Positions 25,017 through 55,423 of a stretch of DNA of 60,811 nt are shown piece by piece. The notes beneath the pieces are model-generated. The model made no database searches and was not told the origin of the DNA. It worked only from the letters and a program-made list of their open reading frames with translations. Both the position numbers and the translations under genes were made by a program. Position 1 is the stretch's first letter; every line of letters begins with the position of its first letter. The stretch is from positions 1 to 60,811 of the forward strand of contig QZJO01000003.1 of assembly GCA_003599755.1 (NCBI GenBank). The letters are read 5' to 3'. The DNA comes from Candidatus Parcubacteria bacterium. Lineage in GTDB: Bacteria > Patescibacteriota > Minisyncoccia > Sungbacterales > SURF-37.

Positions 25017-25745
25017 CTATTGGCAGGATGTGGTCTCTTCCTTGAGAAATCCGTTGGCGAGTGACGCTCCGGCCATCACGCCAGTAGCGGCATTCCATAC
25101 GCCGGTAGCGAACGCGCCGCCTGACGGCCGGATTGTTGTGACCGATGCGGGCGCGCATGGCCGGAACACCGGGGGCGGAGTCGGCGGGGCGAGTGGCGGC
25201 GGGACCTGAGCGACTGCTGGCGGTTCGGCGCGGCTCACCACAGGTGGTTCGACGCGGCTCACCACTGGCGGCGCGCGCCGATCGATGATCGGGTTACCGC
25301 ACATGAGCGAGATGAACGCGCGGCCGCGATAGGCAAGCACGCGTTCGCCCTCGTAGCAGGGCCGCTGAAACGTGCCAAACGAAAATAGGCGCCGTTCCCC
25401 TGGTTTCGACGCCGAGACGGTTGCGGGCCGGATGTATTCGATCGCCACCGACGAGTTGTTCGCGGGCCAATCGCACCGGACGATCCGCACTTCGCCGCTC
25501 TGGAGAAACGCGATGAGCTGCTTCGGATGGCCAAGCGGGATGCCGGCCGCCTTGCCGATACGGTCGGCAAGCACGGCGGGCGGCACGCGGAAGCTCTGCG
25601 ACTCGATTTTCTTGATGAGATCCTCCTTGATCCGGACGGATCGGTCGAGTGAGATGTAGAATGGCTTTCCTTGCTCGGCAAACGATGCCGTGGGGCCGAG
25701 GAAAACCGCGAGAACCGCGCACAAGATGCCGATGGCGTGGCGCAT
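25017..25745 (-). CDS. Secreted hypothetical protein with Pro-rich repeat
   Basis: Signal peptide; SLMCGNP; tandem PPVVSR(V/A)E; AAGGAG SD. Confidence 0.7.
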   Translation of the reverse strand: MRHAIGILCAVLAVFLGPTASFAEQGKPFYISLDRSVRIKEDLIKKIESQSFRVPPAVLADRIGKAAGIPLGHPKQLIAFLQSGEVRIVRCDWPANNSSVAIEYIRPATVSASKPGERRLFSFGTFQRPCYEGERVLAYRGRAFISLMCGNPIIDRRAPPVVSRVEPPVVSRAEPPAVAQVPPPLAPPTPPPVFRPCAPASVTTIRPSGGAFATGVWNAATGVMAGASLANGFLKEETTSCQ

Positions 25746-28022: not shown

Positions 28023-28131
28023 GGGACCATACTAGCGGATCTGAATTGAGCGCTGTGCACACCGTATCGAAGCATTGCCATGGTATACTGAACATGCGCT
28101 ATTTTGTTTGGTCCGCTCGACGTTTCAGCGG

Positions 28132-29232
28132 ATGCGTATACCGTTTCTCCAAAATCTACGGTTTCCCGCGATCTCGCTCTGGGGCTTCGGACCAGCGAGT
28201 TTTGTTGGCATTGACGTTGGTAGCGACTCGGCCAAGGTAGTACAATTAAGAAAAGAGCGCGCACGCGCGGTACTCGAAACGTACGGTGAATTGCGCACGG
28301 GACACTATTTTGCCAAAGATGCGCCCAGCGCGTCGGCGGGATTCCTCGGCGCATCGGACGAATCGATTGCCAACGTCCTGGTAGACCTGGTTCGCGAGGC
28401 AAAAGTGACGACGCGCCGAGCCGTTTTTTCCATACCGGCGACCGCAAGTTTTCTCACCGTCATTCCATTGCCGCTCTTGGACGAATCCGAAATCGCCGCA
28501 GCCGTGCCCTTTGAGGCCAAAAAATACATTCCCATGCCGACCAGCGACGTTGCCCTGGATTGGGAGCTCGTGAGCCGTAACGAACAGGAGCGCCGCGTGG
28601 AGGTGCTGCTTGCCGCGGTACCCGCGGAGCTCATCGCCAAATACCAGCGCGTGGCCGAACTCGCGAAGCTTCGGGCCGAGGCCATGGAAATCGAGAGTTT
28701 CAGCTTGGCGCGTTCACTCTTGATGGGGGATCGCGGCGTATCGGCAGTGATCAACTGGGGCGCGATCGTGACCACGCTTTCGATCGTAGACCAGGGGCGT
28801 ATCCGCGCGAACCATAATTTCGGCCGCGGATCGTTCGAGATCACGACCGCCCTCGCGCAGACTCTCGGCGTCAATCTGGAGCGAGCCGAGGCGATGAAGC
28901 GGGAAGTCGGCCTTTCCGAGAAGCCGGAGGAGCGGCAAATCACCGAAATCATCGGGCCGATCGTGGACGCCGCTCTGACCGATATCGAACGAGCCATGAC
29001 CGCCTATAACCAGCGCGCCGAGCGGCGCATCGAAAAAATAATTTTGACCGGCGGCGGCTCCAATCTGGCCGGCGTCGTACCGTATATCGCGAAACACTTT
29101 GATCTGGAGACGGCGATTGGCAATCCGTTCGTCCGCACCGTATACCCCGCGTTTTTGGAGCCCGTACTCCGGGAGATCGCGCCGAATTTCGCGATCGCGA
29201 CGGGCGCGGCATTACGCCAAATAACCGTATGA
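28132..29232 (+). CDS. pilM: Type IV pilus assembly protein PilM (cluster 1)
   Basis: GIDVGS, EAKKYIP, ILTGGGSNL actin-like motifs. Confidence 0.92.
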   Translation: MRIPFLQNLRFPAISLWGFGPASFVGIDVGSDSAKVVQLRKERARAVLETYGELRTGHYFAKDAPSASAGFLGASDESIANVLVDLVREAKVTTRRAVFSIPATASFLTVIPLPLLDESEIAAAVPFEAKKYIPMPTSDVALDWELVSRNEQERRVEVLLAAVPAELIAKYQRVAELAKLRAEAMEIESFSLARSLLMGDRGVSAVINWGAIVTTLSIVDQGRIRANHNFGRGSFEITTALAQTLGVNLERAEAMKREVGLSEKPEERQITEIIGPIVDAALTDIERAMTAYNQRAERRIEKIILTGGGSNLAGVVPYIAKHFDLETAIGNPFVRTVYPAFLEPVLREIAPNFAIATGAALRQITV

Positions 29233-29327
29233 CCTTTCGATGCAACTCAGGGCGAGGATGCGAAACGCCAGCGCATATGCGCCAAAGATGTTTTTGCCTT
29301 ACTCGTGGTGAGTTTATCGAACCATGA
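29229..29327 (+). mobile_element. 99-nt MITE-like element, family A, copy 1, ATGA-bounded
   Basis: 89/99 identical to 32965-33063; imperfect terminal IR. Confidence 0.8.
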
Positions 29328-29893
29328 TCGATCCGCGGCCGGCATTTATTCCGCATCCGACGGTCCAGCCCCAAAGCCGGCCGCTCATGATCATCGGCGC
29401 CAACTGGTTCTTTACCGTGGGCATGATCGTGTTCGTGCTTGGCGCGCTCGCGACCGCGGGCGTATTCGGCTACAAGGGATACTTGCAGCGTGTCCGCGCC
29501 GGAGAAATGGATGCCGTGCGCGCGCGCGAACAGCAATTGCGCTCGAGCCAAGCCCTTGAGGAGATCACGGCGTTTTCCCAATCCCTTGCCGCTGCGCAAA
29601 ACCTCCTGCAGGACCACGTGTTCCCGACGAGCATTCTTCGGCTCTTGGAAGATACGACGCATCAGAACGTGCAGCTGCGAACGCTTTCGTTCAACCGCGG
29701 CGAGCGGCGCGTGGCGCTTTCCGGCATTGCGCGATCCTACCAGACGGTTGCGGAGCAGATCATGGTTTTGGAGTCGAGCCCCCATGTGGAGCGAGTGACG
29801 TTCGGTGGACTCGCCAGCGATGCGCAGAATCGCGTTTCATTTACCATGACGCTGACGCTGCGGCCGTCCGCATTTGGCTATCGAGAACCATAA
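29324..29893 (+). CDS. pilN: PilN-like protein
   Basis: Single TM, LSGIA.SY..VAEQI pattern, synteny. Confidence 0.75.
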   Translation: MIDPRPAFIPHPTVQPQSRPLMIIGANWFFTVGMIVFVLGALATAGVFGYKGYLQRVRAGEMDAVRAREQQLRSSQALEEITAFSQSLAAAQNLLQDHVFPTSILRLLEDTTHQNVQLRTLSFNRGERRVALSGIARSYQTVAEQIMVLESSPHVERVTFGGLASDAQNRVSFTMTLTLRPSAFGYREP

Positions 29894-29897
29894 CTCC

Positions 29898-30431
29898 ATG
29901 CGCTCACTGCTCGGGATAATTCTGTTCGGCATCGGCATCGGCCTTGCGGCATTCGTCGCATGGCCGCAGTGGGACGCCATCGCGACAATCGAGGCGGACA
30001 CCGAGGCGATTCGGCAACTAAAAGCCGAGATAGAGCAGCTAATCGCTCACCGCGACCGGCTCTTGGCGGAGCGCGAGGCCATTGACCCTGCCGATATCCG
30101 GCGGATCGAGGCCATGGCGCCCCGCGGGGTCGAAGAAAAGGAATTGATTCGAACCATGGAAACGCTCGCGCTCCAGCATGGATTGCAGCTGCGGGATCTG
30201 ACGATCGAGCCGAGTGCGCAAAGCGCGGGCGTCGGCACGCCGTCCGAAACCGCGTATACCGCCGTACCGATCCATGTCACGGTCGTAGGCAACCTTACGG
30301 CATTCCGGCAATTTCTCTCTTCCGTGGAACAGAATTTGCGTCTGATTGATGTGGTGCAATTGTCTCTGAACGCGCCGGATGGCAACGCGGTGGCGTTCCC
30401 CGTCGAGAGCAACGTATATTATCGCCCATGA
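29898..30431 (+). CDS. pilO: PilO-like protein
   Basis: TM, coiled coil, GNL..F..FLSSVEQNLRLIDV. Confidence 0.8.
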   Translation: MRSLLGIILFGIGIGLAAFVAWPQWDAIATIEADTEAIRQLKAEIEQLIAHRDRLLAEREAIDPADIRRIEAMAPRGVEEKELIRTMETLALQHGLQLRDLTIEPSAQSAGVGTPSETAYTAVPIHVTVVGNLTAFRQFLSSVEQNLRLIDVVQLSLNAPDGNAVAFPVESNVYYRP

Positions 30432-30718
30432 CCGCGACCATATCCGACAATTTGAAAATCTTGCTTGCCGTCGCGATTCTCTTGGGCGTGGGATTCATCT
30501 GGTATATGTACATCGGCCCGATTCTCGATGCGCCCGAAGCAGTGTATGCGGAGACGGTCATTGATCCGGAGAATCTCCGGCGCTACCGGCGATTGAACGC
30601 CGCGTCGTTCAATCTGGAATTCTTTACGGGGCCGGAATTCCGCGGCTTGCAAAGCCCGCCGCTTACGGCAACGTCGTCGCTTCCGGCCGGCCGGCCGAAC
30701 CCCTTCGCGCCATTCTAA
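30428..30718 (+). CDS. Small TM protein in the PilP position
   Basis: ATGA coupling; GRPNPFAPF end. Confidence 0.65.
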   Translation: MTATISDNLKILLAVAILLGVGFIWYMYIGPILDAPEAVYAETVIDPENLRRYRRLNAASFNLEFFTGPEFRGLQSPPLTATSSLPAGRPNPFAPF

Positions 30719-30749
30719 GGCGCTTGGTCATGGTTCAGATGCGCAATTC

Positions 30750-32474
30750 ATGGCAAAAACCGTACTCGATATCCTTGCCGCCAACGGCGCGATCACGAAA
30801 GAGCAGGCGGCCGAGGCGAAGGAGCGGATAAAAGACGAGCGCCGGCCCATCGATGAGGTCGCAACCGCACTCGGCGTTTCCGAGCGCGATTTTGTCATGG
30901 CGCAGAGCGAACTTTTGAAAATTCCCGTCAAATTCCTGAACGGCCGGCAGGTGCCGTTCGATGTCTTGAAGGCCATCCCCGAGGACTCGGCGCGGTTCTA
31001 CCAGACCGTGCCGTTGGGCGAGGCCAACGGCATGCTCGAGGTGGGCATGGTGCATCCCGAAGACGTCAACGCGCAGGAAGCGCTGAAGTTCATTTCCTCG
31101 CGCATGAACCGGCCGTTCAAGGTGTTTCTCGTCACGCCGTCGGATCTGAAAAAAGTCCTCGAGTCATATCGCGGCTTGTCGGGCGAAGTGACCGAAGCGC
31201 TCTCGCAGTTCAGCCAAGATTTGGCCGATGAGTCGGTGCGTATCGCCGGTGGCACGCGAGCCGAGCCGGGCGGAAATTCCCCCGAGGAGGCGCCGATCAC
31301 GAAAATGGTTGCGGTTATTTTGCGCCACGCCGTCGAGGGGCGGGCATCGGACATCCATGTCGAGCCCGGACGCGATAAATTGCGGGTGCGCTTTCGCGTG
31401 GACGGGGTGCTCTATACCAGTTTGTTTCTGCCCTTGAATGTGCACAGCGCCGTCATCACGCGCATTAAAATCATGTCGAACCTGAAGATCGACGAGATGC
31501 GCGTACCGCAGGACGGTCGCTTTCACGCGCAAGTGGTAGGAAAAGAGATCGACGTGCGCGTTGCCACGTTTCCCACGAGTTTCGGGGAAAAAGTAGTGAT
31601 GCGGATTCTTGATCCGGAAGTCGGCATCAAGACGCTGCCGGAGCTCGGCCTCGAAGGGCGGAATCTTGCGGCGCTCGAGGAGGCGATCAGGCGGCCCTAT
31701 GGCCTGATCGTGATCAGCGGGCCGACCGGCTCGGGCAAGTCCACGACGCTCTATGCGCTTCTGAATATTTTGAATCAGGAAGGCCGTAATATCGTTTCGC
31801 TCGAAGACCCGATCGAATATCTGATCTCGGGCGTGAACCAATCGCAGGTACGGCCCGAGATCGGCTACGACTTTGCCAACGGTCTGCGCCAAATTCTCCG
31901 CCAGGACCCGGACATCATCATGGTCGGCGAAATCCGCGACGGCGAGACCGCTCAATTGGCGATCCATGCCGCGCTGACCGGCCACCTCGTGCTCACGACG
32001 CTGCATACGAACAACGCCGTCGGCATCGTGCCGCGGCTCGTAGACATGGGCGTGGAGCCGTTTTTGCTCTCATCCACGCTTGTGCTCGGCGTCGCACAGC
32101 GGCTTGCGCGGCGCCTCTGCGAGGATTCGCGCAAAGAAGTAAAAATCGAGGGCCGCGCGCGGGAAATTATCGACGAGGCGATCGCGGATATGCCGCAGGC
32201 GATGCGATCCGAATACGAGGCCGCCGCCAAACGCGGCGTGATGTGGGAAGGCGTCGCATCGCCGACCTGCCCCAAAGCGACCCGCGGGCGCATCGGACTT
32301 TTCGAAGTGGTCGAGATGACGCCGGAATTGGAAAAAATCATTCTGACCGGCATTTCGGAGACGAAGATTCAAGCCGAAGCGCGCCGCCAGGGCATGGCGA
32401 CCATGCGCCAGGACGGCATCCAAAAAGTCCTTCAAGGCGCGATTGGTATTCGCGAACTACTCGAAGTAGTATAA
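30750..32474 (+). CDS. pilB: PilB/GspE assembly ATPase (cluster 1)
   Basis: ASDIHVEP, GPTGSGKST, LRQDPD, GHLVLTTLH. Confidence 0.95.
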   Translation: MAKTVLDILAANGAITKEQAAEAKERIKDERRPIDEVATALGVSERDFVMAQSELLKIPVKFLNGRQVPFDVLKAIPEDSARFYQTVPLGEANGMLEVGMVHPEDVNAQEALKFISSRMNRPFKVFLVTPSDLKKVLESYRGLSGEVTEALSQFSQDLADESVRIAGGTRAEPGGNSPEEAPITKMVAVILRHAVEGRASDIHVEPGRDKLRVRFRVDGVLYTSLFLPLNVHSAVITRIKIMSNLKIDEMRVPQDGRFHAQVVGKEIDVRVATFPTSFGEKVVMRILDPEVGIKTLPELGLEGRNLAALEEAIRRPYGLIVISGPTGSGKSTTLYALLNILNQEGRNIVSLEDPIEYLISGVNQSQVRPEIGYDFANGLRQILRQDPDIIMVGEIRDGETAQLAIHAALTGHLVLTTLHTNNAVGIVPRLVDMGVEPFLLSSTLVLGVAQRLARRLCEDSRKEVKIEGRAREIIDEAIADMPQAMRSEYEAAAKRGVMWEGVASPTCPKATRGRIGLFEVVEMTPELEKIILTGISETKIQAEARRQGMATMRQDGIQKVLQGAIGIRELLEVV

Positions 32475-32584
32475 GGAAGAGCTATGCCCGGTAGTGCAAT
32501 GCAAGCAAGTTCTGCCGCGCATTCAGTTCCGGAAAACTCCGCGACCGTTTTGGTAATCAACCGCTATTCGTTGTACTGCCGGGT

Positions 32585-32968
32585 ATGAAAATCCTGATCG
32601 TCGATGATGATCCGTTCGTCGTTGAGATGTACGGACTGAAACTGAAATCCGCGGGGCATACCGTGGAATCCGCCGAAGACGGCCAGCGCGGCATGGAAAT
32701 GATCATGCGCGGCGGATGGGACGTGGTGCTGCTCGATATCGTGTTGCCGATTCTTGATGGATTCGAGGTGCTCGAAGCGCTCCGCCGCAGGGGTGCGGCG
32801 CATCCGCCGATCATTTTGCTGACCAATGTAGGCGAGCGCGCGGATATCGATCGCGGCCTCCTGCTCGGCGCGGCCGATTACCTCGTCAAAACGCATTTCA
32901 CGCCTGCCGAAGTGCTTGCCAAAGTAGAAGCGGCCGCCAATCACGCGGCTGCCGCACCGCAACCATGA
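32585..32968 (+). CDS. Receiver-only response regulator
   Basis: IVDDD, LLDIVLP, LTN, YLVK. Confidence 0.92.
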   Translation: MKILIVDDDPFVVEMYGLKLKSAGHTVESAEDGQRGMEMIMRGGWDVVLLDIVLPILDGFEVLEALRRRGAAHPPIILLTNVGERADIDRGLLLGAADYLVKTHFTPAEVLAKVEAAANHAAAAPQP

Positions 32969-33063
32969 CCCTTCGACTCCGCTCAGGGCGAGAATACGAA
33001 ACACCAGCGCATATGCGCCAAAGATGTTTTTGCCTTACTCGTGGTGAGCTTGTCGAACCATGA
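32965..33063 (+). mobile_element. 99-nt MITE-like element, family A, copy 2, ATGA-bounded
   Basis: TTCGAC..GCTCA..CGAG / CTCG..TGAGC..GTCGAA arms. Confidence 0.8.
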
Positions 33064-34124
33064 CTGACCAATTCGACGCCCTTTTGGAAGTCGTCCTGAA
33101 GGAAAACGCCTCCGACCTGCATTTGTCCGTGGGTCGGCGGCCGACGATTCGCGTCGCGGGCGCACTGATCGAACTTGGCCGGTTCCCGATTTTGACGCCG
33201 GCCGCGGCCAAGGAAATCATCATGGCGATTCTTGCTCCAGGGCAACAGGAGCGGTTTTTGGCGGAAAAAGAACTCGATTTTTCATACGGTTTTCGCGAGA
33301 ACAAGGCGCGGTTCCGCGTGAACGTATTTTTCCAGCGCGGATTCATGGGTGCCGCACTCCGGTTGATCCCGTCCAAAATCCGTACGTTCGAGGAACTCGG
33401 CCTGCCGCCGACCATCGCGGAATTTTGCGAGCGGCAGCAAGGATTCTTGCTCGTGGTGGGTCCGACGGGCCACGGCAAATCCACGACGCTCGCCGCCATG
33501 ATCGACTACATCAATCATCGCCGCACCGACCACATCATTACGGTCGAGGATCCGATCGAGTATCTGTTTACGCCGGACCGCGCCATCGTGGATCAGCGCG
33601 AGGTGGGTGCGGATACGACGAGTTTCCCCCGCGCGCTCAAGTCGGTGTTCCGCGAAGACGTGGACGTGGTGATGATCGGCGAAATGCGCGACGCCGAGAC
33701 CATGGGCACCGCGGTTACCGCGGCCGAGACCGGTCATTTGATTTTCTCGTCGCTGCATACCAACTCCGCATCCCAAACGATCGATCGTATCATCGACAGC
33801 TTTCCGTCGCATCAGCAGGGCCAAATTCGAGCGCAAATGGCGGCTACGCTCGTCGGCATCATTTCGCAGCGCCTGATCCCGCGCGTGCAGGGAGGCCTGG
33901 TACCCGCGGTGGAGTTGATGATCGCCACGCCGGCGGTACGCAATTTGATCCGCGAAGGCAAGCAGCACGAAATTGATTTCGTGATCGAGACCAGCTCCGA
34001 CCAGGGCATGACCAGTTTGAACCGGGCGCTCGCGGATTTGGTCCGAAGGAACGAGATCACCCTCGAAAACGCGGCAACCTATTCGCTGAATCCTCAGGAA
34101 TTGGCGGTGCTGTTGCGGCGCTAA
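33060..34124 (+). CDS. pilT: PilT retraction ATPase
   Basis: ASDLHL, GPTGHGKST, GEMRD, AVRNLIRE. Confidence 0.96.
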   Translation: MTDQFDALLEVVLKENASDLHLSVGRRPTIRVAGALIELGRFPILTPAAAKEIIMAILAPGQQERFLAEKELDFSYGFRENKARFRVNVFFQRGFMGAALRLIPSKIRTFEELGLPPTIAEFCERQQGFLLVVGPTGHGKSTTLAAMIDYINHRRTDHIITVEDPIEYLFTPDRAIVDQREVGADTTSFPRALKSVFREDVDVVMIGEMRDAETMGTAVTAAETGHLIFSSLHTNSASQTIDRIIDSFPSHQQGQIRAQMAATLVGIISQRLIPRVQGGLVPAVELMIATPAVRNLIREGKQHEIDFVIETSSDQGMTSLNRALADLVRRNEITLENAATYSLNPQELAVLLRR

Positions 34125-34137
34125 CGAACGGGTGCAC

Positions 34138-34308
34138 GAAATTCGAGGCACGAATACCGAAATCCGAAACAATGTCTAAATTTATAAATGACCGAATGAC
34201 GAAAACGCACGGATGCTTTTATTGGGAACATTCGGGTTTGTCTCGGATTTCGCCCGCCTCGCCCGACTCGGGACAAGTCGGGGCTGGGAATTTCGGATCT
34301 CGGGTTTC
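34138..34308. mobile_element. MITE-like palindromic element, family B, copy 2
   Basis: GAAATTCGAGGCACGAA start, AATGACCGAA core, GAATTTCGGATCTCGGGTTTC end. Confidence 0.55.
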
Positions 34309-34319
34309 ACTCTGTTGAT

Positions 34320-50126: not shown

Positions 50127-50192
50127 TGCCGCCCGCCCCCGTGTGCATACCCCTGCCCCGAGGATGCGCGGGCCATGGTATACTGTGCAGTG

Positions 50193-51143
50193 ATGATGGG
50201 GAACTTGCATCGGTTGAACGTGATCGCGGAGTGCCGCGGCGCGCACCTCGGCCTGTGGGCGTGTCCGCCGTTTCTCTTCGTGGTGATGGGCATTGTCGAT
50301 ATATCGGCAATGCTCGGATCCTACGTGCTGGCAAACCGCTATCTTGATGAGACCACGACGGTTTTGCTTATCACGGCGGTTGCCATATTCATCTTCGTGA
50401 TCGGCAATTTCATCATTACCGGCTTCAACCAGATCGCGGAAGCCAACCGCATCAAGAACGAGTTCATCTCGGTGGTATCGCACCAGCTCCGCTCGCCCTT
50501 GTCGGTGTTCAAATGGGTGCTCGATGCCATGGCCCATACGTCGGTGGACGCCGCGCGGGATCCGGCGACGCAGTCCTACCTCGGGATGCTCCGCGACAAC
50601 GCGGAAAAGATGATCCAGCTTGTCAACATGCTTCTCGAGGTCTCGCGGTTCGAGTCCGGCCGGCTCGTACTGCGCCAGGATCGGGTTTCCCTGGACCTGG
50701 TCACCGAGGAATTCGTGCGCTCATACGCGCCCTATGCCAAGGCCGCGCATGTGACCATTCAGTTCACGGCGCCGGCGAATCTGCCGCCGGTCCGCGGCGA
50801 CAAAGAAAAGATCAAGATGGTCGTGCAGAATCTCATCGACAATGCCGTGCGCTATTCGCGTTCGGGCGGGCAAGTGACGATCGTCGTCGCATCTTTGGGG
50901 CCGGCAATGGTCGAATGGCGGATCTCCGATATCGGCATCGGCATCGCCAAAAGTCAGCAGCGCTATATTTTCCAGAAGTTCTTTCGCACCGACAAAGCGG
51001 TGCAGCATCAGACCCAAGGATCGGGATTGGGCCTCTACATCGCCCGCTCGCTCGTTGTCGCCCAGGGCGGCGACATGGGCTTTACGTCCGAAGAAGGCAA
51101 GGGAACGACGTTCTGGTTTCATCTGCCGGCATATTCCACATAA
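50193..51143 (+). CDS. Sensor histidine kinase
   Basis: Two TMs, SHQLRSPL, NLIDNA, DIGIG, GSGLGL. Confidence 0.93.
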   Translation: MMGNLHRLNVIAECRGAHLGLWACPPFLFVVMGIVDISAMLGSYVLANRYLDETTTVLLITAVAIFIFVIGNFIITGFNQIAEANRIKNEFISVVSHQLRSPLSVFKWVLDAMAHTSVDAARDPATQSYLGMLRDNAEKMIQLVNMLLEVSRFESGRLVLRQDRVSLDLVTEEFVRSYAPYAKAAHVTIQFTAPANLPPVRGDKEKIKMVVQNLIDNAVRYSRSGGQVTIVVASLGPAMVEWRISDIGIGIAKSQQRYIFQKFFRTDKAVQHQTQGSGLGLYIARSLVVAQGGDMGFTSEEGKGTTFWFHLPAYST

Positions 51144-51152
51144 CCATTCTGT

Positions 51153-51521
51153 ATGGCAAAGATCGTATTCATCGAAGACGAACCCGCATTGCAGCAGTCC
51201 CTCGGCGATTTTCTCCGTTCGAACGGCCACGAAGTCATGGCGGCCCTGAACGGCGAAGACGGCCTCGCCATGATCCAAAAAGAGCATCCGGACCTGGTGC
51301 TGTTGGACGTGATCTTGCCGCGCATGAACGGCATCGAGGTACTGCGCGCCATCCGCAATGACCCGGCCACGCAGGCCACGGCGGTCATCATGCTCACGAA
51401 TTCGGAGGCCGGGGAGACGATCGAAGAAGCGGTGCGCCTCGGCGCCAAAGCGTATCTGGTAAAGACCTCGTATTCGCTCGACGAAGTATCCGAGAAGGTG
51501 AAGAACGTGCTCGGAGCCTAA
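51153..51521 (+). CDS. Receiver-only response regulator
   Basis: IEDE, LLDVILP, LTN, YLVK. Confidence 0.92.
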   Translation: MAKIVFIEDEPALQQSLGDFLRSNGHEVMAALNGEDGLAMIQKEHPDLVLLDVILPRMNGIEVLRAIRNDPATQATAVIMLTNSEAGETIEEAVRLGAKAYLVKTSYSLDEVSEKVKNVLGA

Positions 51522-51563
51522 CGGGCCGCCGCATCTTACCTCACGCTTCCCGATTCAGTTAAA

Positions 51564-51708
51564 AAATTCGAAGCACGGAATACGAACCAATGTCCCCACG
51601 TCCGAATGATCGAAATGCGTTTCGATATTTTACGTTTTCGGATTTCTTTCGCATTTCGCCGAAAGCCCGAGGGCTCGGCCCTCTCGGGGTATTCGAATTT
51701 CGAGTTTC
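51564..51708. mobile_element. MITE-like palindromic element, family B, copy 3
   Basis: AAATTCGAAGCACG start, AATGATCGAA core, TATTCGAATTTCGAGTTTC end. Confidence 0.5.
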
Positions 51709-51718
51709 TCAGTGAGCT

Positions 51719-53488
51719 ATGCGAATCAGCGACGATCAATTGAAAGCGTTCATTACGGACGGCGGGCTCGTCGGCGCGGATGTGCTCGGCCGCGCCGAAA
51801 TGGAAGCAAAAAAGACCGGCCAATCGCTGCATGAAGCGATTTTGCGCCTTAAACTCATTGACGAGGGCGACTTGCGCAAGCTCGAGGCCTATATTTTCGG
51901 CATCCCGTTCATCGACCTTTCGAAGGAAACGATCGATCCGGAAATATTGCGGCTGATTCCCGAACCGATCGCCAAGAAGTCGAACGTCATCGCATTCCGG
52001 AAATCCGGCCGCGATCTTCAAGTCGCGATGCTCGACCCGGACGATATCCAGACGATCGAGTTCATCAAAAAGACCACGAATCTGCGCGTGCTGCCCCGGT
52101 TGACGAATGCCGAGAGTATCAAAGCAGGACTGCGCCAGTACCAGAAAAGTTTGGAGGCAGAGTTCGGGGAGATCATAAAAAAGGAATCGGGCGACATCCG
52201 GATTCTTGCCGGTGCGGGAGGCGTGGAAGGCGGCGAGGCCGCGATCGAAGGCGTCGAGGATCTGAAGAAGCTCGCCGAGGACCTTCCGATCATTAAAATC
52301 GTGGACACGCTCATCCGCCACGCCGCCCTGCAAAGCGCGTCCGACATCCATATCGAGCCGGCCGAAAAGGAAGTGATCGTACGCTACCGTATCGACGGCT
52401 TGCTGCATGACGCGATGACGCTTCCGAAGCAAATCGCGCCCGGCGTGGTCGCGCGCATCAAGGTGATATCCAACCTGAAACTCGATGAACACCGCCTACC
52501 GCAGGACGGCCGATTCAGAGTGGACGCGCCGGATTACCGTATTTCCATGCGCGTTTCGGTATTGCCGGTCGCTGACGGCGAAAAAGTGGTCATGCGGCTT
52601 CTTCCGGAAAACGCCCAAGGGTTCACGCTCGAAAAGTTGGGATTCTTCGGCTATCAGCTCGACATGATCCATAAATATATCCGCCGTACCACCGGCATCA
52701 TGCTCGCGACCGGGCCGACCGGGTCGGGCAAGACCACGACGCTCTATACCGTCATCGATATTTTGAACAAGCCAACGGTCAATATTTCGACCGTTGAGGA
52801 TCCGATCGAGTACCGCATCCCCCGGGTCAACCAAACGCAGGTTCGGCCGGAGCTCGGCCTCACGTTTGCCAACGGTTTGCGCTCTCTCCTGCGTCAGGAC
52901 CCGGACATCGTCATGGTCGGCGAGATCCGCGACGGCGAAACCGCGGACCTTGCGATCAACGCCGCGCTGACCGGCCACCTGGTGCTCTCGACGCTGCACA
53001 CCAATTCGGCGGCTGGCGCGCTGCCGCGCCTCGTGGATATGGGCATTGAGCCGTTTTTGATCGCCTCCACGGTCAATGTCATCACCGCCCAGCGGCTCGT
53101 GCGCACGCTGTGCGCCGAGCGCGAGGAGTATCGGTTAACCGAAGCCGAACTCAAGAACCTTTCCCAGCAGGCGGATCTGGACCGCGTATTAGCAACGCTT
53201 AAGCACGAGAAAATCGTGCCGCAGGATGCGACATGGAACGACATCGCCTTCGCGCGGCCGAAAAAAACGGCTGAGTGCCCGGACGGGTACAAGGGGCGCA
53301 TCGGCATTCATGAAGTGATGGAAGTCACGCCCACGATCCGGGAGCTCGTCATGAAGCGTTCCAGTTCCGATGCAGTGGAGCGCCAAGCGCGCAGCGAGGG
53401 CATGATTACCATGCTCGAGGATGGGTTCATGAAAGCGGCGCAAAAAATCACGTCGATCGAAGAGGTGCTGCGGGTCATCAGCGAATGA
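51719..53488 (+). CDS. pilB: PilB/GspE assembly ATPase (cluster 2)
   Basis: ASDIHIEP, GPTGSGKTT, LRQDPD, GHLVLSTLH. Confidence 0.95.
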   Translation: MRISDDQLKAFITDGGLVGADVLGRAEMEAKKTGQSLHEAILRLKLIDEGDLRKLEAYIFGIPFIDLSKETIDPEILRLIPEPIAKKSNVIAFRKSGRDLQVAMLDPDDIQTIEFIKKTTNLRVLPRLTNAESIKAGLRQYQKSLEAEFGEIIKKESGDIRILAGAGGVEGGEAAIEGVEDLKKLAEDLPIIKIVDTLIRHAALQSASDIHIEPAEKEVIVRYRIDGLLHDAMTLPKQIAPGVVARIKVISNLKLDEHRLPQDGRFRVDAPDYRISMRVSVLPVADGEKVVMRLLPENAQGFTLEKLGFFGYQLDMIHKYIRRTTGIMLATGPTGSGKTTTLYTVIDILNKPTVNISTVEDPIEYRIPRVNQTQVRPELGLTFANGLRSLLRQDPDIVMVGEIRDGETADLAINAALTGHLVLSTLHTNSAAGALPRLVDMGIEPFLIASTVNVITAQRLVRTLCAEREEYRLTEAELKNLSQQADLDRVLATLKHEKIVPQDATWNDIAFARPKKTAECPDGYKGRIGIHEVMEVTPTIRELVMKRSSSDAVERQARSEGMITMLEDGFMKAAQKITSIEEVLRVISE

Positions 53489-53538
53489 AGCGTTTGGCCC
53501 CTGTAAGCACGAACGAGCGGGCAGGGTCGCCAAACCTT

Positions 53539-53674
53539 CACCCCGACACCAAACCAAAGGCATCGCGGTATACCCAATACCGAAGGCATGAAGAATCAAA
53601 CTGCAACAACCGTATTCCAAGCCCGAAACCGTCACCTGAACGCACAGTATTATGCCTTTGGTTGGTGCGGGGTG
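53539..53674. repeat. Long inverted repeat between pilB2 and pilC2
   Basis: CACCCCGACACCAAACCAAAGGCAT 53539-53563 / ATGCCTTTGGTTGGTGCGGGGTG 53652-53674. Confidence 0.65.
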
Positions 53675-53718
53675 CTTAATTTCGTAATTACTCGCTATCG
53701 CTCGTAAACGAAATTAGC

Positions 53719-54939
53719 ATGCTCTACGCTTTTCGCGCGGTGGATCGAACCGGCAAAACGATTTCCGAGACGCGCGACAGCGCGTCCGAGCGGGAGCTTG
53801 CCGACGCGCTGCGCAGCGAGGGATTTCTGCTATTGGAAGCGACGCCGCAAGGTACTGTCGCACCGGGCAAGCGGCGGGGCCTTTCGTTGCCGATGTTTCT
53901 TTCCCGCGTGACGCTCGTCGAACGCATGGTCTTCGCGAGGAATCTTGCCGTCATGGTGGGTGCGGGATTGTCGCTCACGCGGGCCTTGGAGGCGCTCGAA
54001 GAGCAGTCGACGAACCAAAAATTCCGGACGATTCTTGCCGATATCCGCGAGTCGGTGACGCGCGGCGTATCGTTTGCCGATTCGTTGCGGCCGCATGAGC
54101 GGGTATTCGGACCGATTTTTATTTCCATGATCGAGTCGGGCGAAATATCCGGAAACTTGGAAAAAGTGCTGAAAACCCTGGCGAAACAGATGAAGCGCGA
54201 TCATGATCTGCGATCGCGCGTGAAGGGCGCGTTGATTTATCCCGCCATCGTCATCGGGGCGCTCGTCGTTATCGGCATGCTTATGATGATCTATGTCGTA
54301 CCGACGCTGACCCAGACGTTCGCGGAACTGGAGATCGACCTGCCGCTTACGACCAAAATCGTTATCGGCGCTTCAAATATATTCCTGCAATATTACTACT
54401 TGGTGCTCATTGCCGGCGCCGCGCTGGTTTTGGGCGCATGGTATGCTTTGCGCCTTCCGTCCGTGCGCCTGGCGTTCGACAGCGCCATCCTGCGCGTGCC
54501 GCTGTTCGGCCCGCTGATCCAGAAACTGAATTCGGCGCGATTCGCGCGCACGCTTTCGTCCCTCATCGGATCGGGCACGCCGATTACCCGCGCGCTCGAA
54601 GTAACGGCTGCGGTGCTCGGCAACCATCGGTTTCGCCAGTCGCTCGAAGGAGCTGCGGCCGTAGTGCAGCAAGGCAAGCCCTTGTCCGACGTGCTGAAGA
54701 AGCACCCGGAGCTGTATCCGCCGCTCGTTACCGAAATGCTCCAAGTCGGGGAAGAGACCGGCGCGACGACATCCATGCTTTTACGCCTCGCATTGTTTTA
54801 CGAAGAAGAAGTCACGGCAACGACGAAAAACATGTCCAGCGTCATCGAGCCGGTGCTCATGATCGTGATCGGCGCGATCGTTGGTTTTTTCGCGATATCT
54901 ATGATCCAACCGATTTACGGCGGGCTCGGCGGCATTTGA
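53719..54939 (+). CDS. pilC: PilC/GspF platform protein (cluster 2)
   Basis: FARNLAVMV, GEISGNL, GEETG, EPVLMI. Confidence 0.95.
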   Translation: MLYAFRAVDRTGKTISETRDSASERELADALRSEGFLLLEATPQGTVAPGKRRGLSLPMFLSRVTLVERMVFARNLAVMVGAGLSLTRALEALEEQSTNQKFRTILADIRESVTRGVSFADSLRPHERVFGPIFISMIESGEISGNLEKVLKTLAKQMKRDHDLRSRVKGALIYPAIVIGALVVIGMLMMIYVVPTLTQTFAELEIDLPLTTKIVIGASNIFLQYYYLVLIAGAALVLGAWYALRLPSVRLAFDSAILRVPLFGPLIQKLNSARFARTLSSLIGSGTPITRALEVTAAVLGNHRFRQSLEGAAAVVQQGKPLSDVLKKHPELYPPLVTEMLQVGEETGATTSMLLRLALFYEEEVTATTKNMSSVIEPVLMIVIGAIVGFFAISMIQPIYGGLGGI

Positions 54940-54955
54940 CCGCCGGAATGATGGT

Positions 54956-55423
54956 ATGATTACTGCATCCGCGCGGCGCGGCGTCACGGCTCTCGAGCTT
55001 CTTTTGGCGATCGCCTTGGTCGCGATCATCGCGACGCTCTTGGCATCGGGGTTTTCGCTGTTCCGCCGGTCCGTGGCAGTCGGCGCGGCGACCGAGACGA
55101 CGCTGGCGGTGCTGGCCGAAGCGCGATCACGCACGCTCGGATCGCGCGACGCGGCAAGCTGGGGCGTGCATTTCGAGACGAGCCGCATCGTGCTCTATAA
55201 AGGTCCGGCATTCAGCGAGGGCGCGGCGGGTAATGAAGTCACGGCGCTTGGCGGCGACGTGCGCATCGCAACGATCGCGCTGGCCGGCGGCGGATCCGAC
55301 GTGTTGTTCGATCGGTTGACCGGCGCGACGTCCCAAGCCGGAACGATCACGATCGAACATGCGCATGATGCGTCGCGGTTTCGGGTCATTACGGTCTTAG
55401 CTACCGGTATCGCGAGCTTATGA
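54956..55423 (+). CDS. Minor pilin, FimT/GspH-like
   Basis: RG/VTALELLL. Confidence 0.8.
   Translation: MITASARRGVTALELLLAIALVAIIATLLASGFSLFRRSVAVGAATETTLAVLAEARSRTLGSRDAASWGVHFETSRIVLYKGPAFSEGAAGNEVTALGGDVRIATIALAGGGSDVLFDRLTGATSQAGTITIEHAHDASRFRVITVLATGIASL

Follow-up and report, generated by a model that had tools for sequence, protein, structure and literature searches.

Bacterial miniature inverted-repeat transposable elements (MITEs), among them Correia/NEMIS of Neisseria, ERIC and RUP, are small and non-coding, carry terminal inverted repeats, duplicate their target, form hairpins in the mRNA and are found within operons. The Rickettsia palindromic elements (RPE) sit inside genes, where they preserve the reading frame and become part of the host protein, while REP/REPIN elements, reportedly treated by Bertels and Rainey in 2011, are said to go with RAYT transposases. 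The MIRU, as presented in a 2025 review citing Supply 1997 (PMC12548453), are mobile repeats which insert at start codons and whose open reading frame (ORF) is coupled at a -4 spacing. In this study we analysed a 60,811-nt stretch of DNA from a Candidatus Parcubacteria bacterium (contig QZJO01000003.1, hereafter the window), whose pilus (pil) operon contains two copies, A and B, of a 99-nt palindrome bounded by ATGA at both ends. Our analyses indicate that this is probably a mobile palindrome inserted at ATGA overlaps between genes, in which a throw-away ORF relays ribosomes to the downstream gene through two termination-reinitiation events.

Compared by description and not by sequence, in which no relatedness is expected, the element would work like MIRU, which that review (PMC12548453) portrays as short intercistronic repeats located at a start codon, with an ORF coupled downstream by a 4-nt overlap and with little effect of the insertion on expression. 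We do not file it as a MIRU, given its different host, its palindrome and its single-unit organisation: MIRU are mycobacterial and constitute variable-number tandem repeats, whereas the present element is a long imperfect palindrome, flanked by ATGA and present as a single unit per site, in the candidate phyla radiation (CPR) and in many other phyla. With Correia/NEMIS, ERIC and RUP it shares a small size, the absence of coding function, terminal inverted repeats, an apparent target duplication, an mRNA hairpin and a location in operons, but it differs from them in its apparent target, an ATGA stop/start overlap rather than TA or the like, in its built-in frame, which preserves phase and is free of stops, and in that no matching autonomous insertion sequence was found, either in the window, in viral contigs or beside the family copies, that shares its ends. 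The MITE features that were found are a length of 99 nt without transposase coding, terminal inverted repeats, and an empty as well as an occupied site, the last at the junction of two ribosomal protein genes in a subfamily and not at the window sites.

Similarly, REP/REPIN elements are dispersed imperfect palindromes, and the tandem or inverted multimers formed by REPs have a parallel in the arrays of the broader family described below. Unlike REP/REPIN-RAYT systems, however, the element has no GTAG-type head, its unit is ~95 nt long (20-40 nt in REP), it occupies a precise gene-boundary position and no RAYT/Y1 transposase was found by Pfam in the window; it does not conform to that type. RPE resemble it in being palindromic repeats whose frame-preserving insertion lets translation through, and differ from it in their position, since the present element lies between genes and has a separate ORF; RPE can thus be regarded as its in-gene counterpart.

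Two sister copies in the pil operon

Copy A (29229-29327) separates pilM from pilN, and copy B (32965-33063) separates the gene of a stand-alone response regulator, here called the receiver gene, from pilT, both on the plus strand. The initial annotation of the window had described two 99-nt copies at these junctions, with 10 mismatches, no indels and imperfect terminal inverted repeats, and this was confirmed in sequence (89/99 identical, gap-free), homology between the copies stopping at the outer ATGAs. Its reading of the junctions held as well: the TGA stop of the upstream gene (29230-29232 for pilM and 32966-32968 for the receiver gene) falls within the left ATGA and the downstream ATG within the right one, and the two ATGAs are spanned by the 32-codon ORFs MTFRCNSGRGCETPAHMRQRCFCLTRGEFIEP (copy A) and MTLRLRSGREYETPAHMRQRCFCLTRGELVEP (copy B), both free of stops from the first ATG to the TGA of the right ATGA. 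Because a 31-nt core was found twice, with 0 occurrences expected from shuffles, the repeat lies far beyond chance. The GC content of copy A is 49%, compared with 59% for the window.

Both copies are predicted to fold as RNA into a long imperfect hairpin in which the two ATGAs are left unpaired. In copy A it spans 29236-29321 (element nt 8-93), with the apex GCGCATATGCGC and a folding energy of -31.3 kcal/mol (z = -2.3), and in copy B it spans 32972-33057 (-28.4 kcal/mol); the imperfect inverted-repeat arms TTCGAY/RTCGAA, CTCA/TGAG and GCGAG/CTCGT are present in both. Nine of the ten differences between the copies are non-synonymous and one is silent, while four of them make up two compensatory pairs (T-A to C-G at nt 13/88 and A-T to G-C at nt 17/85), so that the stem has been kept and the peptide has not.

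Divergence between the copies is uneven, with eight differences in the first 39 nt (29229-29267 versus 32965-33003), two in the last 60 nt and an identical 46-nt core, a pattern that suggests either partial gene conversion or a stronger constraint just upstream of the downstream start. Two other roles of the structure were ruled out, namely that of an intrinsic terminator, as the hairpin is not followed by a T-run, and that of GGTGAG in the 3' arm as a Shine-Dalgarno (SD) sequence, as the stem sequesters it and 12 nt separate it from the ATG. A search of Rfam 15 returned no match at the gathering threshold and a single chance match at E=5.

The named relatives of PilM and PilT belong to Candidatus Sungbacteria (CPR/Patescibacteria). 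The junction between the end of pilM and the element was also present, with 1-4 differences, in contigs from two separate studies, one a soil run (X1) and the other a rhizosphere run (X2); the insertion is therefore real, not an assembly artefact, and shared by a natural population. One X1 contig joining the end of the receiver gene to the start of pilN was rejected as evidence of a rearrangement, being a de Bruijn chimera formed via the 46-nt identical core.

Family members at gene junctions

The wider family was screened with a pattern restricted to the termini (ATGACCNTTCGA, a gap of 60-90 nt and TCGAACCATGA), in which ATGA was demanded at both ends. It identified 36 metagenome loci (the loci compared here are designated L followed by a number), 33 of which also carried internal motifs that the pattern did not force: the left arm is followed by CTCAGGG(C/T)GA and the right arm is preceded by (C/G)TGGTGAGC. 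These 33 relatives are 84-111 nt long, have variable interiors and come from hosts with a GC content of 34-69%.

We then counted 35 family members (metagenome relatives, L054 and both window copies) according to their position, a junction copy being one in which an upstream long ORF stops in the left ATGA and a downstream long ORF starts in the right ATGA. Twenty-one copies were found exactly between two long ORFs. Among these, 17 are in phase, against an expectation of 1/3 (binomial P=1e-5). A frame free of stops occurs in 15, where 3.4 would be expected when the rate in shuffled interiors is multiplied by 1/3 (P~1e-8). The 14 copies off junctions include six in phase and three stop-free, and open frames differ between the two classes (Fisher p=0.006). 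When orthologous sites were collapsed, 12 of the 18 distinct junctions were bridged. The proposal that the bridging frame is kept at junctions was thereby upheld beyond the two copies on which it had been based, and the caveat that came with it, that these copies share ancestry and their frame fit is not two independent observations, is answered by the family statistics, which constitute an independent replication.

The flanking ORFs that were scanned correspond to real genes. A Pfam scan of ten of them (eight downstream and two upstream, from the 21 junction copies) returned a match in all ten cases, with the downstream domain starting at residues 1-17 in AcrB, HisS, LivH, a CCG-domain protein, an ABC ATPase and CoaE, and later in FtsI (residue 55) and in a group-1 glycosyltransferase (L037, residue 164); the upstream L22 protein gave a Pfam match too.

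The closest relatives of the window element, with up to 74/99 identity, occupy the junction between rplV (L22) and rpsC (S3) in L026, L030 and L054, whose S3 proteins are most similar to those of Sungbacteria. This subfamily and the window element have the same end peptides, MT[LF]R..SGR...CGE[LI]VEP. In L057 (S3 81% identical), one ATGA is shared by the end of L22 and the start of S3 (...AAAGCGATATGACCCACCGAG...), whereas the occupied junction of L054, L026 and L030 reads ...CATATGACCC[TTCGAC...CGAACCATGACCC]ATCGAG.... The element is 102 nt long at this site and the insert amounts to 98 nt between direct repeats, which measure 7 nt (ATGACCC) here versus 4 nt (ATGA) at the window sites. Such a pattern would be expected from duplication of an ATGA target, and equally from the insertion of an ATGA-ending element next to an ATGA. 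The earlier suggestion of a MITE-like insertion into ATGA with duplication is supported by this empty and occupied pair in the subfamily, but finds no parallel at the two window junctions, where the relatives have spacers in place of the ATGA overlap; the initial annotation had named such a lack as counter-evidence, which is partly borne out for these two junctions. At L22|S3, by contrast, the overlap is present in L057.

An alignment of six subfamily members showed that the outer stems are invariant (TTCGAY/RTCGAA, CTCA/TGAG and GCGAG/CTYGT), that the interior including the apex is not conserved, and that the peptides share only the end residues dictated by the DNA termini. At the same L22|S3 junction, L056, from another Sungbacterium, carries a different 99-nt insert (1406-1504, with four GCCTTCA repeats), also bounded by ATGA at both ends and containing an open 32-codon frame.

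The family as a whole is modular. Its arms (TTCGAC..CTCAGGG on the left and GGTGAG..GTCGAA on the right) form pairs linked at the apex by GGGTCATGG or, at unit boundaries, by the reverse complement CCATGACCC, and tandem arrays occur in L018, with arrays of the broader family also in L051. In two related organisms, the junction between LivK and LivH carries an 84-nt copy (L034, 2373-2456) and a 105-nt copy (L039), both in phase and stop-free; the latter encodes three ERLSGHG-like 7-codon units and the former one, the number of 21-nt internal units being variable. The L034 copy also has a stretch near its 5' end that differs from the L039 copy. Within the window itself, the minus strand at 25224-25263 holds two tandem 24-nt units, GTGGTGAGCCGCG(T/C)CGAACC, close to the right arm of the family and in frame in a 242-aa Pro-rich ORF, in which the units read PPVVSRVEPPVVSRAEPP. 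The resemblance may be coincidental, or the units may be a family relic that the ORF has absorbed.

Other searches were less productive. An exact 20-mer of the conserved core gave one chance match in GTDB genomes (L001) and none in JGI metagenomes, the termini pattern gave a single chance match in viral contigs (L006), and the subfamily interior, the basic 35-nt unit and the long forms gave nothing in viral contigs. A scan for doubly coupled mini-ORFs based on the open frame alone was dropped, as it was too noisy in GC-rich DNA. Full-text literature searches with the arm sequences and the translated peptides retrieved no paper; the family and its habit of occupying ATGA junctions across phyla appear to be undescribed in the searchable literature, the principle itself being known.

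Translational relay and rival explanations

In the mechanism that we propose, A and B would be sister copies of a mobile element that is small, non-coding and able to form a hairpin, and that belongs to an ATGA-flanked sub-type. The element would enter a 4-nt ATGA overlap, in which the upstream TGA stop shares bases with the downstream ATG, and after insertion an ATGA would stand at both ends, with the upstream stop and the downstream start both kept. The insert would lengthen the distance between the ATGAs by a multiple of three (96 nt here) without introducing an in-frame stop. On terminating at the end of the upstream gene, a ribosome would resume at the AUG that overlaps this stop and translate all 32 codons of the frame, thereby unwinding the hairpin of about -30 kcal/mol, whose end otherwise lies only 2 nt from the following start codon. 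The ribosome would finally terminate on the UGA overlapping the downstream AUG and restart there, the mini-ORF peptide being a throw-away product. From this arrangement we infer that the mini-ORF is translated and that coupling is preserved or attenuated.

The SD core motif was found in 0/9 pil genes, in agreement with the initial description of an SD-poor operon, and in 12/58 starts of the whole window versus a background of 12%; native ATGA gene overlaps occur frequently in the window. In Escherichia coli and Haloferax, a spacing of ~20 nt suffices to abolish nearly all termination-reinitiation coupling (PMC10666635). A 91-nt hairpin insert would therefore break coupling unless a translated frame carried the ribosome across it.

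A broader proposal, put forward tentatively and as possible rather than probable, is that such palindromes are mobile specialists of operon junctions across phyla, which target ATGA itself and pass coupling across by a relay that they encode, with ends that rebuild stop and start, a length in multiples of three and a stop-free frame. If true, CPR genomes that are streamlined and poor in SD sites would be open to the element even in their pilus and ribosomal-protein operons. A minimal structure-specific nuclease might serve as the mobilising enzyme. Ssn nucleases associated with hairpin repeats have been described (PMC11893778), but the small GIY-YIG (Slx1/Ssn-like) nuclease mini-elements have terminal sequences that differ from those of the present family, and no full-length family relative with a nuclease gene was found, which makes them a lead only.

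Several observations weigh against the proposed mechanism. In the window, the open frame of the two copies taken alone is weak evidence, as ~29% of shuffled interiors remain stop-free once the phase is given (P ~0.29) and a second frame is also open. No third copy was detected in the 60.8-kb window by nhmmer or blastn-short, and none beyond A and B in the thin contigs (~4x depth) of X1, the likely source sample; the element looks low-copy in its own genome. At the junctions of the window, no ATGA overlap is seen in any of the available relatives, all of them distant (identity of 62-70% for PilM and up to 82% for PilT), with spacers of 18, 22, 24, 51, 77, 105 and 196 nt between pilM and pilN and of 10, 10, 17 and 106 nt between the receiver gene and pilT. 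Furthermore, the PilN N-terminus is 5 residues shorter in the window than in the aligned relatives, and the pil junction may have undergone deletion or remodelling along with the insertion; ATGA would, by inference, be the pre-insertion state of both window junctions.

In the family, six of the 18 distinct junctions are unbridged, and the bridge is therefore not obligatory. Among these six, the L040 copy extends the downstream gene in frame at its N-terminus, whereas the frame of L032 ends 5 nt beyond the start codon. Preference for the sense strand in fold energy was not significant (14/21, p=0.13). As the scan pattern forced ATGA at both ends, its counts give no preference for ATGA over other targets. 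Viral contigs contain relatives found without demanding ATGA, with the ends CC(C/A)TTCGAC...GTCGAACC(A/G), no ATGA and arrays joined by CCACCC, and the ATGA-bounded form is therefore a sub-type. In L023, L028, L038 and L043, all from one metagenome, an ATGA-bounded unit of 86-88 nt lies out of phase inside a palindromic repeat of ~131 nt with conserved flanks, so that ATGA is not always target-derived in the family. As for the means of mobility, Pfam detected no transposase in the window, a GIY-YIG motif scan of all fetched loci found no nuclease ORF beside family copies and only an unrelated relic in L004, and no longer element with the family termini was found in viral contigs, a limited search space.

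The relic of L004 (10480-10635), between pilO and the next gene of a related Sungbacterium, is a decayed mini-element with 17-nt inverted ends (GTGCTACAACTTCGAAC) and GTATGC repeated on both sides, and contains a truncated GIY-YIG ORF (MYFVYVLQSLRDGKRYVGFTT...) in frame from an upstream ATG.

The foremost alternative, although we regard it as unlikely, is that of a tolerated passenger, a mobile palindrome whose mini-ORF is not used. Translation of pilN and pilT would then begin independently and without an SD sequence, the surplus of in-phase open copies at junctions would reflect only the purge of harmful fusions or long out-of-frame overlaps, and any effect would be exerted via the RNA hairpin, for instance on transcript stability or processing. 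Relatives do manage the same junctions with SD-less spacers of 10-24 nt, so overlap coupling is not essential in the lineage, but a stem of about -30 kcal/mol that reaches to within 2 nt of the start codon would be expected to prevent SD-less initiation if nothing unwinds it. The unbridged third of distinct junctions and the chance level of openness in the window copies would suit a passenger, whereas fusion avoidance alone gives no reason to expect that the frame in 15 of the 21 junction copies should connect the upstream stop precisely with the downstream start. That the hairpin is conserved and the peptide is not also speaks for it; against it, inserts unrelated to the family at the same junctions are exact bridges too, as in L056 and in the 106-nt receiver|pilT spacer of L004 (13297-13410), an unrelated sequence that forms an exact GTGA...ATGA bridge of 37 codons.

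Far less probable is a dedicated regulatory element of the pilus operon, in which the perfect 12-bp apex GCGCATATGCGC would act as a protein-binding operator or as an RNase/attenuator site setting the PilM:PilN and regulator:PilT ratios and would have been copied between junctions. Such a role could account for the presence of both known copies in one operon, 3.7 kb apart, with their inner 46 nt identical and no other copy in the window or the X1 contigs. The same termini and architecture, however, recur at unrelated junctions of many organisms (L22|S3, LivK|LivH, CoaE), the subfamily does not conserve the interior or its apex, the lack of a T-run excludes an intrinsic terminator, and Rfam holds no match. 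Finally, that the two 32-codon ORFs are functional genes for pilus micro-proteins is scarcely credible despite the open frames with start and stop codons in both copies, as nine of the ten nucleotide differences alter the amino acid, the subfamily shares only end residues set by the conserved DNA termini, and a search of the mini-ORF peptide against 1.84 billion representative proteins retrieved only spurious translations of satellite or tandem repeats.

Operon context and significance

The order of the operon by Pfam is pilM-pilN-pilO-orf96-pilB-receiver-pilT-pilC-pilin, and the genes next to the two copies are all on the plus strand. pilM (28132-29232 in the ORF list; PilM_2, 8e-42) encodes 366 aa as called in the public protein set, with a 100% identical 366-aa cluster entry, and a TTG at 28075 is also possible as its start. 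pilN (29324-29893) matches PilN, the receiver gene (32585-32968) matches Response_reg (4e-23) and pilT (33060-34124) matches T2SSE. In the junction comparison, the PilT N-terminus MTDQF is common to the window and to L004.

Other spacers of the operon also hold repeats or short frames. The pilB|receiver spacer (32475-32588) measures 110 nt, versus 7 nt in the closest relative L012, and contains a 34-codon ORF (32484-32588) which opens 9 nt downstream of the pilB stop and terminates within the ATGA at the start of the receiver gene; 5% of shuffles give such a bridge. Like the bridges in the L004 and L056 spacers, it would fit the relay. The pilT|pilC spacer (34125-34319, 195 nt) contains a GC hairpin, CCCGAC..GTCGGG, and a 48-codon ORF (34172-34318) whose TGA lies 1 nt before the pilC ATG. 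Unrelated hairpins or short-period repeats were likewise observed in pil- and ribosomal-operon spacers of Sungbacteria (L004 9111-9306 and 12843-12928, L007 8156-8232, L008 8111-8215, L055 ~1400-1500), for example GTTAGATAAAA/TTTTATCTAAC, units of CGAATATACAAATC and heptamer runs of the CAAAAT/ATTTTG type. The pil- and ribosomal-operon junctions of Sungbacteria seem to have been repeatedly invaded. The window also holds a second cluster of pilus/secretion type (50175-55000), with a histidine kinase, a PilB paralogue (51719-53488) and a PilC paralogue (53719-54939); the PilB paralogue shows 73-76% nucleotide identity to pilB (31448-32102 versus 52441-53095) over stretches of 300 and 75 nt.

The recognition of this family has a practical side, since it yields hundreds of spurious small ORFs in metagenome annotations (MTLR...VEP, FDKLR... 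and VSLSNHE peptides), and identifying them as such would clean up gene calls. The proposed relay bears on how selfish DNA lives inside tightly coupled operons without breaking them, and on how downstream genes are translated in genomes with few SD sites. If the relay works, these palindromes would be natural portable translational couplers; as some ribosomes are lost whenever reinitiation takes place, they could also set subunit ratios. The family provides a concrete, testable case of the MIRU principle outside mycobacteria.

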